A stretch of DNA of 64,000 nt from Octopus vulgaris (taxonomy: Eukaryota): positions 221,278,001 to 221,342,000 of the forward strand of contig OX597814.1 of the NCBI GenBank assembly GCA_951406725.2. Direction: 5' to 3'. Each line of letters starts with the position of its first letter. Position 1 is the first letter of the stretch. A program made the translations under genes and the position numbers. The notes beneath the pieces were generated by a model. That model made no database searches. It was not told where the DNA came from and was given only the letters and a program-made list of their open reading frames with translations. Below are positions 1,393 through 1,770 of the stretch, piece after piece.

Positions 1393-1770
1393 ACCCAGAA
1401 ATCGAAAACAGAGAGTTGCTTATTTGCAAAAAAAAAAAAAGAAATATAAAATGTGACATCATTGACCGAGGTTACCGTGGTCTTTTCCGTAGGCTTTTCT
1501 TTCCACGGGTAAACCTCACCTGTCCTCCCCTTTACACTTCATATTGACATTTCTGTGATAACGATCCCTATTGATCAATTTTTTTTTCCTCTCCCCCTTT
1601 TTTTTTTAACCCCCCTTTTTTTTGTCCTCTTTCTCTCCTTTTACGACCCCTTTTGATAGAAACTCCCCCTTCCTTTTTCTTTTTTTTTTTTTTTTTAAAC
1701 CTTCAAAAGAAAAGCTCTACCTTGTAATTTGTTCTATCTGTGTGCAGCCCTGTGTGGCTAATAAAGAAAC
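242..1770 (+). mobile_element. 5'-truncated Tx1/L1-clade non-LTR retrotransposon (3' part of ORF2 plus ~380-bp 3' UTR)
   Basis: GC-rich coding block starts abruptly after (TATC)n. The pyrimidine-rich 3' UTR ends ...GCAGCCCTGTGTGGCTAATAAAGAAAC at 1770, immediately followed by (TATC)n. Confidence 0.92.

Follow-up and report, generated by a model that had tools for sequence, protein, structure and literature searches.

SINE B, an abundant octopus short interspersed element, shares with retrotransposons of the L1/Tx1 group a 3' tail with a covarying stem and a poly(A)-free end; its copies mostly end at this tail and often carry target-site duplications (TSDs) like those of Tx1 elements, and a Tx1-like family that we call P50 lies inserted at about position 50 of the SINE itself. 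Judging from these sequence comparisons, we consider it likely that SINE B is copied in trans by a Tx1 ORF2 protein, most likely one from the clade of families c3, c5, c6 and P50, rather than by c0, the family represented in the window (the whole 64,000-nucleotide stretch of Octopus vulgaris DNA analysed here).

On its forward strand, the window contains a 5'-truncated and very young copy of an L1/Tx1-group LINE of family c0 (242..1770), set between a left (172..241) and a right (1772..1886) (TATC)n array that constitute the two parts of its target site. Its ORF2 C-terminal 382 aa, including a zf-RVT zinc knuckle, are open to the stop (244..1392), and its conserved 3' terminus, which is without poly(A), occupies 1728..1770 with the sequence quoted in an earlier note on this DNA: TCT-G-TGT at 1737-1743, the hairpin AGCC-ctgtgt-GGCT at 1746-1759 and AATAAAGAAAC at 1760-1770. 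Full-length c0 copies have an ORF1 and a 1149-aa ORF2 frame with APE, RT and zf-RVT domains, and the C-terminal 183 aa of the window copy gave 150 listed matches of equal score at 99% identity, many of them within 1149-aa open frames. The best PDB match to c0 ORF2 was human L1 ORF2p (E=1e-53), with R2 at about 1e-19. With its ORF1, N-terminal APE, RT and C-terminal zinc knuckle, and with L1 closest among solved RTs, the window LINE belongs to the L1/Tx1 group. The narrower label 'Tx1 clade' is provisional and draws on two indirect indications, the specificity of targets and the annotations of octopus genomes; a target-sequence preference, which characterises this clade, was found in many of the families sampled here, and L1-Tx1 is the sole L1-group type in the available part of the octopus annotations (PMC13282606). 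The 3' flanks of c0 copies are TATC arrays in 41 of 49 cases and short ATCTA in six, placing 47/49 before TATC/ATCTA. Copies of c0 and older tails of its lineage are also found stacked head to tail inside shared TATC arrays (L003-L005, L007, L011, L016, L017, L023, L030, L046). The window also contains copies of a separate, abundant family of repeats that have (CA)n/(TA)n tracts inside them (1887-2426, 12865-13289, 18975-19386, 33820-34243, 60402-60827, 62135-62877); one of these copies starts where the LINE's right TATC array ends.

A SINE B monomer consists of a tRNA-like head, a central body and a Tx1-type tail of about 60 nt. The window holds one monomer of about 235 nt with a 16-bp TSD (30143..30377, minus strand); a trimer, in which a head unit is followed by two more units, with three Tx1-type tails and a 14-bp TSD starting AGAAAG (6657..7250, minus); and a dimer in which the second unit takes up the SINE sequence again at position 50, flanked by a 21-bp TSD starting AAGAAA (24559..24977, plus). 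The duplications flanking these three copies bear out the TSDs that had been ascribed to SINE B. Two further plus-strand copies are a head unit with a partial second unit (44326..44643) and a composite SINE with two Tx1-tailed units and a third that ends in an older 'sister' tail (…GTCTTGTGCC…AAAAGAATATT; 59704..60290). The 22-mer at the SINE B body-tail junction has 68,179 exact occurrences in the 2.8-Gb genome. This is probably a several-fold underestimate of SINE B, given that a single one of the window's nine tails contains the 22-mer. Internal units restart at position 50 in 63 of 79 cases. Fresh nesting is rare (1/232 heads), and multimers therefore appear to spread mostly from multimeric sources. 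The sister SINE, 83.6% identical to its majority, combines the SINE B head and body with a different tail (GGC-cttgt-GCC…AGAAAAGAATATT) and is found at 60180-60290 of the window, at L168, L259, L402, L414 and elsewhere; its tail may be an older one of Tx1 type, with a loop as in SINE B and TSDs of about 15 bp, and no LINE carrying it was found.

ARAGORN and Rfam scans returned no tRNA match for SINE B. By eye, its head contains an A-box-like TGGCAGAAACGTTAG and a B-box-like GAGTTCAAATTCC, at a spacing wider than that of a tRNA. The body may resemble the Sauria-SINE/'beta' central domain. Ohshima and Okada reportedly described the octopus SINEs OK, OR1 and OR2 in 1994, and SINE B may well be one of these. 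The Nin/Deu domain that the earlier note assigned to SINE B found no support in a comparison with published Nin motifs, which are absent from the SINE: one short Nin motif has no match in the window at three mismatches, and a second has seven at chance level, none inside SINE B. Likewise, neither the Nin sequences in the available part of the PMC4758252 supplement nor the bivalve Meta and V alignments in that of PMC4824008 resembled the SINE B body by eye.

When the last 43 nt of the LINE were scanned without gaps against both strands of the window, nine other places matched at 30-34/43, all of them SINE B tails (24748, 24932, 44516, 59885 and 60069 on the plus strand; 30146, 7019, 6835 and 6663 on the minus strand), and the best unrelated position reached 25/43. 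The gapless alignment described earlier is thus real, though the 33-35/43 given for it was slightly high. The mean of 32.4/43 compares with 11.5 in 5000 dinucleotide shuffles (maximum 25.1) and, once the AATAAAGAAAY end is removed, 23.3/32 compares with 10.9 (maximum 20.0), so that the resemblance, whose standing against shuffled tails had been proposed as a check, lies far above them with or without that end; the commonest SINE tail has AGTAAA rather than AATAAA. The small hairpin reported for the LINE and SINE B tails is present in both. Across 1.85 Mb of enriched sequence, 303 tail-like matches comprised 237 behind a SINE body, 55 behind a Tx1 ORF2 and 11 that by eye look like SINE fragments or Tx1-type UTR ends. 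SINE B and Tx1 elements accordingly have a common 3' terminus, as stringent SINE/LINE pairs do.

This tail is not special to the window LINE and is common to dozens of Tx1-like families. A zf-RVT search with follow-ups yielded 216 ORF2 ends in 34 clusters, to which later searches added further families, and wherever the end could be placed, it lacks poly(A) and consists of TCT-N-TGT followed by a short hairpin and then AATAAAGAAA or something close to it. Their stems differ but pair (AGCC/GGCT, CCC/GGG, TGCC/GGCA, GATT/AATC, ACCT/AGGT, TGTCA/TGACA, GATC/GATC). Summed over 23 representatives, with L001 left out and the stem windows for c2 and c8 set by hand, stem length was 85, compared with 53.8±4.5 (maximum 71) in 1000 shuffles. 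Covariation analysis of the hairpin, a check that the earlier note had named, revealed compensating changes on both sides of all four inner stem pairs in a 20-row alignment, with a stem covariation of 0.278 against 0.136 in shuffles (0/500 reach it) and 87% of stem cells paired against 46-52% in slid controls. A conserved stem-loop with compensatory changes, a second mark of stringent pairs, is thus present, with a negative result from RNAalifold, which returned no consensus structure for the tail alignment; single-sequence folding z-scores of the tails were weak (-1.7 to +0.3), and covariation is absent from the predicted outer stem UCU-N-UGU/AUA-A-AGA, whose bases hardly vary.

Tx1 tails score up to 70 against the SINE tail, four mis-called tails (L110, L162-L164) having been dropped, whereas 29 of 30 non-Tx1 RT loci score 12-23 and one, L279, scores 34. 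These controls, labelled by eye from C-terminal motifs where called CR1-like or RTE-like, were 24 loci of one CR1-like family, four RTE-like and two single loci; among the 30, no LINE end matched SINE B better than Tx1 ends do. The shared covarying hairpin end supports the Tx1 origin that had been proposed for the SINE B tail.

The sampled families also show a variety of insertion sites. Another abundant SINE is the target of the young Tx1-like family c2/c8 (L151-L161, L205, L210, L216-L230), which enters the head of that SINE at a single base with the 16-bp TSD AAGTAGCTTGCTAACC and whose tail contains 9 additional nucleotides separating the hairpin from the end. Among the sisters of the window LINE are families that target microsatellites, namely (ATT)n (L104, L291-L320) and (TC)n (L101, L393, L395, L397), the former lying in tandem arrays with a spacing of about 5.87 kb (ten copies on contig C50, for example). 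Family c4 (L086, L112, L120, L087) is inserted at one repeated target with the 17-bp TSD AGAAGCGACACCTACTG, and in c5 (L091, L096, L099, L075) and c7 (L113, L118, L170) the 3' flank resembles the start of a related element (GAAATTCGGCAAAGAA; ATCG…CTGGTG), which suggests self-targeting stacks.

Insertion signatures connect SINE B to the same machinery as its tail. Among headed SINEs ending at the Tx1 tail, 38 of 76 have TSDs, compared with 0/377 when flanks were swapped; 31 of these 38 TSDs measure 12-18 bp and those of Tx1 LINEs mostly 14-18 bp, so that, as expected of a stringent pair, the lengths overlap, and the insertion site is common to SINE B and P50, not c0. In the less biased set of tail-bearing headed SINEs (n=127), 98 end at the Tx1 tail, 11 at the older sister tail and 18 elsewhere; in a set selected for the position-17 junction, 20 of 36 composites end in the sister tail, and sister-ended composites have a TSD, of about 15 bp, in 13 of 31 cases. 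In multimers, tails of the GGGTAGT type continue into TAGGTAT and those of the GGGCAAT type mostly into TAAGAAA. We compared these read-through bases with the TSD starts of dispersed copies, taking the left TSD copy as the pre-existing target: AGAAA starts the TSD for 7/11 GGGCAAT tails and 0/27 others (p=2.6e-5; background 0.8%), GGTA for 7/27 others and 0/11 GGGCAAT tails (p=0.08, not significant alone; background 1.3%) and TATAT for 9/38 overall (background 4.5%), while 15/38 TSDs begin with none of the three. TSD starts are thus often the bases found behind the tail in multimeric source copies, a correspondence that suggests RNA-primed site choice and that we read as priming by pairing of the RNA with the nicked target. 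The earlier note was puzzled that a Tx1-tailed SINE should be absent from TATC sites. None of the 76 headed SINEs stands before TATC, but little of the puzzle is left once the tail is seen to be common to a whole radiation, whose families insert at many different targets.

The TATC-targeting family of the window had been put forward as the specific partner of SINE B, a proposal that we do not uphold: the burst of SINE copies long predates this family, and there are others whose tails fit the SINE equally well or better. Identity to the respective majority is 99.9% for c0, 98.3% for c3, 98.5% for c6, about 97.5% on average for P50, 93.9% for c1 and 93.7% for the SINE (91 units; samples were score-selected). 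This difference in identity between c0 and SINE B, together with the lack of TATC behind any of the 76 headed SINEs, makes current c0 probably not the driver; among 30 loci examined, one SINE copy (L178) is followed by a TATC array. Families c3 and c6 have the hairpin and loop of the SINE, GCCC-cttgt-GGGY, with as many as 26/26 terminal bases identical; the proximal tail of the SINE, TTGTCTGTCCTTGTTTGTCCCCTCT, is that of c1 and c2, and the whole-tail score is best for c1 (86, compared with 44 for c0), a family outside the clade of c3, c5, c6 and P50. None of the families sampled combined both halves in full, and a search for a LINE ending in the entire 60-nt SINE tail yielded none: of 89 pattern matches, 30 were examined and all 30 were SINEs, and c1-, c11- and L104-type protein searches with 20 more divergent loci brought new families without a full-tail donor.

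At locus L431, a Tx1-like element lies at SINE position ~50 with a duplicated target. Its tail 25-mer has 75 exact genome matches, and 12 of 13 loci examined among these, lead locus included, are copies of the P50 family, ten with ORF2 upstream; in each of the 12, what lies behind the LINE is the SINE from position ~49-50 onwards, and the thirteenth is a SINE B copy. The P50 insertion point coincides with the restart point of the 63/79 internal SINE units. P50 groups with c3, c5 and c6 (SH-aLRT 94, quick tree), and a c3+c5+c6 grouping received 99/95 in a separate tree from which two weak translations were left out; in the P50 comparison, rows L161_c0, L060_c3 and L433 are unreliable representatives. 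Over the last 34 nt, mean matches to 256 SINE tails were 28.0 for P50, 25.8 for c0, 28.1 for L136 and 20.5-22.9 for c1, the margin of P50 over the window family being small and L136 a single decayed copy. The sampled P50 copies, chosen by exact pattern, are younger than the SINE burst (10/11 at 97-100% to their majority), and the driver would therefore be an older member of the P50 lineage. No LINE was found at SINE position 17 in 30 loci examined of 1,977 matches. The P50 copy at L431:878-3470 is internally deleted, running from ORF1 and the first ~80 ORF2 codons into the 3' UTR, and is possibly a non-autonomous derivative. At L136:1211-1300, the decayed Tx1 copy with a SINE B-like tail has a sister-type SINE as its host and interrupts it at position ~150, immediately ahead of where the tail begins in SINE B.

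We propose the following route for SINE B. A template switch immediately behind the GTCGAT-gta-ATCGAC inverted repeat would have given a SINE with a tRNA-like head its Tx1 3' end, and a Tx1 ORF2 protein is predicted to bind the resulting hairpin tail. Tx1 machinery would then have inserted copies with this tail at positions ~50 and ~17 of pre-existing ones, and transcription from an inner head would read on into the remainder of the host copy, producing source elements of the form head+unit+unit that often end in the older sister tail. On such a transcript, ORF2p could bind any of the hairpins and prime a few bases downstream, where read-through bases (AGGTAT, AAGAAA, ATATAT) would pair with the nicked target; the expected outcome would be monomers to tetramers whose TSDs begin with read-through bases. 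Much more tentatively, the elements may together form a closed, RNA-reprogrammable LINE-SINE loop, in which a Tx1 radiation reads poly(A)-free hairpins, the RNA bases behind the hairpin choose the site and the SINE is nested by the very Tx1 elements that target it. If this is true, the SINE now carries a guide sequence made from a portion of its own body.

Other families could have supplied the tail or the enzyme. The TATC lineage of the window, c0 or its older subfamilies, could drive SINE B if read-through RNA bases set the site and made TATC unnecessary, and several observations agree with this: the 30-34/43 tail identity, an older TATC-flanked tail (L046) that is 88% identical to the SINE over 42 nt, the six of 49 c0 copies for which ATCTA alone behind the tail suffices and the SINE copy L178 before a TATC array (1/30). 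We nevertheless regard it as unlikely, given that c0, at 99.9% identity, is far younger than the SINE at 93.7%, that TATC follows 0/76 headed SINEs and that the c0 loop has 6 nt (ctgtgt) against the 5 nt (cttgt) of the SINE, which is the c3/c6 loop. A somewhat doubtful but possible alternative is that the donor and driver was an older, decayed lineage near c1/c11 with both TTGTCTGTCCTTGTTTGTCCCCTCT and the GCCC hairpin, P50 being a later specialist that exploits the SINE. The hairpins of c1 are unlike that of the SINE (20.5-22.9/34), its 3' flanks do not start with GGTA or AGAAA, and a c11-like protein search with 20 divergent loci gave no full-tail family; on the other hand, c1 has the best whole-tail score (86) and the age of the SINE, the tail of the early-branching c11 (L202) has both halves in part, and the P50 copies look young.

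Two further explanations concern the tail's role and the choice of site. Under one, which we consider very improbable, the Tx1 tails are passengers, either because SINE B is mobilised through a terminal sister tail by an unrelated LINE or because the similarity is convergence on a polyadenylation signal. AATAAA is a generic signal, and sister-tail ends make up 11/127 of the less biased set and 20/36 of the position-17 set; but 98/127 end at the Tx1 tail and such ends carry TSDs, the match persists without the AATAAA part, the commonest SINE tail has AGTAAA, and sister-ended composites likewise have TSDs of about 15 bp (13/31). Under the other, the endonuclease rather than RNA-DNA pairing sets the site, with Tx1 families that prefer GGTAT or AGAAA reading different tail variants. 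This would account for the TSD starts equally well and is a real possibility, if short of probable: there are strictly site-specific families (c0 for TATC, the L104 family for (ATT)n, c19 for (TC)n, c2 for the head of another SINE, P50 for SINE position 50), and Tx1 target choice is attributed mainly to the endonuclease in the available part of PMC4494074. Against it, the first TSD bases vary in cis with the tail variant and are those into which that variant reads through in multimers, dispersed SINE sites have only 4-6 bases in common with the P50 site, and no LINE was found at position 17 (0/30 examined). The sharing of the tail stands whether endonuclease or RNA pairing selects the site.

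Mammalian L1 selects its RNA by poly(A). A Tx1-tailed SINE in 68,000 or more units, taken together with the dozens of natural stem, loop and target variants and the many open ORF2 frames, would demonstrate that the L1/Tx1 group of animals has retained strict recognition of the tail. Two questions thereby become testable: whether strict recognition is ancestral for L1 and, by way of the bases behind AATAAAGAAAT, what share RNA-DNA pairing and the endonuclease each have in target specificity. Tail sharing between SINEs and LINEs is well known, and the Tx1-SINE link in the literature that we found, in the portions available, is that of SINEU with Tx1-Mar. The literature covered contained no report of a Tx1-tailed octopus SINE; Repbase, Dfam, SINEBase, Ohshima and Okada 1994 and Piskurek and Jackson 2011 lay outside it and may hold one. 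No Tx1-tailed SINE is mentioned in the available parts of PMC4758252, PMC5804259, PMC5786205, PMC3531059, PMC10294476, PMC4176376 and PMC4824008.

The comparisons that follow draw on the available parts of the papers cited. In a survey of 58 pairs, three SINEs had L1-type tails, in plants and one alga (PMC3747384). The L1-group pairs, ZmSINE2/3 with LINE1-1_ZM in maize/sorghum and SINEX-3_CR with L1-1_CR in Chlamydomonas, resemble SINE B in having a common 3' end of ~45-50 nt, an L1-group enzyme and a hairpin with compensatory changes and conserved flanking bases (PMC3472496, PMC3747384). SINE B differs from them in its animal host, its Tx1-type elements, its end without poly(A), a tail common to many families with different targets, and its multimeric sources. 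Crocodilian SINEU has likewise been assigned to Tx1 machinery, with Tx1 families that target another repeat; there, however, the link is a common target only, SINEU is poly(A)-ended and no LINE with the SINEU-1 3' end was found (PMC4494074), whereas here the tail itself is common and the SINE is the target. Two Tx1 elements that insert into microsatellites, Kibi into (TC)n and Koshi into (TTC)n (PMC4494074), recall the (TATC)n of the window family and the (ATT)n/(TC)n of its sisters; the repeat unit of the window family is a different one.

The 3' stem-loop has its counterpart in UnaL2/UnaSINE and ZfL2-1/-2, where experiments have shown that ORF2p reads it, as is predicted here from sequence; these belong to L2 rather than the Tx1 clade, 'TX1' in that paper denoting mutants. 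In the L2 model, recognition is general for the stem and specific for the loop, and this agrees with the present tails, in which stems vary but loops are of few types (PMC4176376). For RTE, the I factor and R1Bm, the first TSD bases match the RNA 3' end and are proposed to prime reverse transcription, with a microhomology of 1-2 nt in animals that derives from microsatellite tails (PMC6007223). In SINE B, by contrast, the microhomology comprises 4-6 nt of unique read-through from the element's own body.
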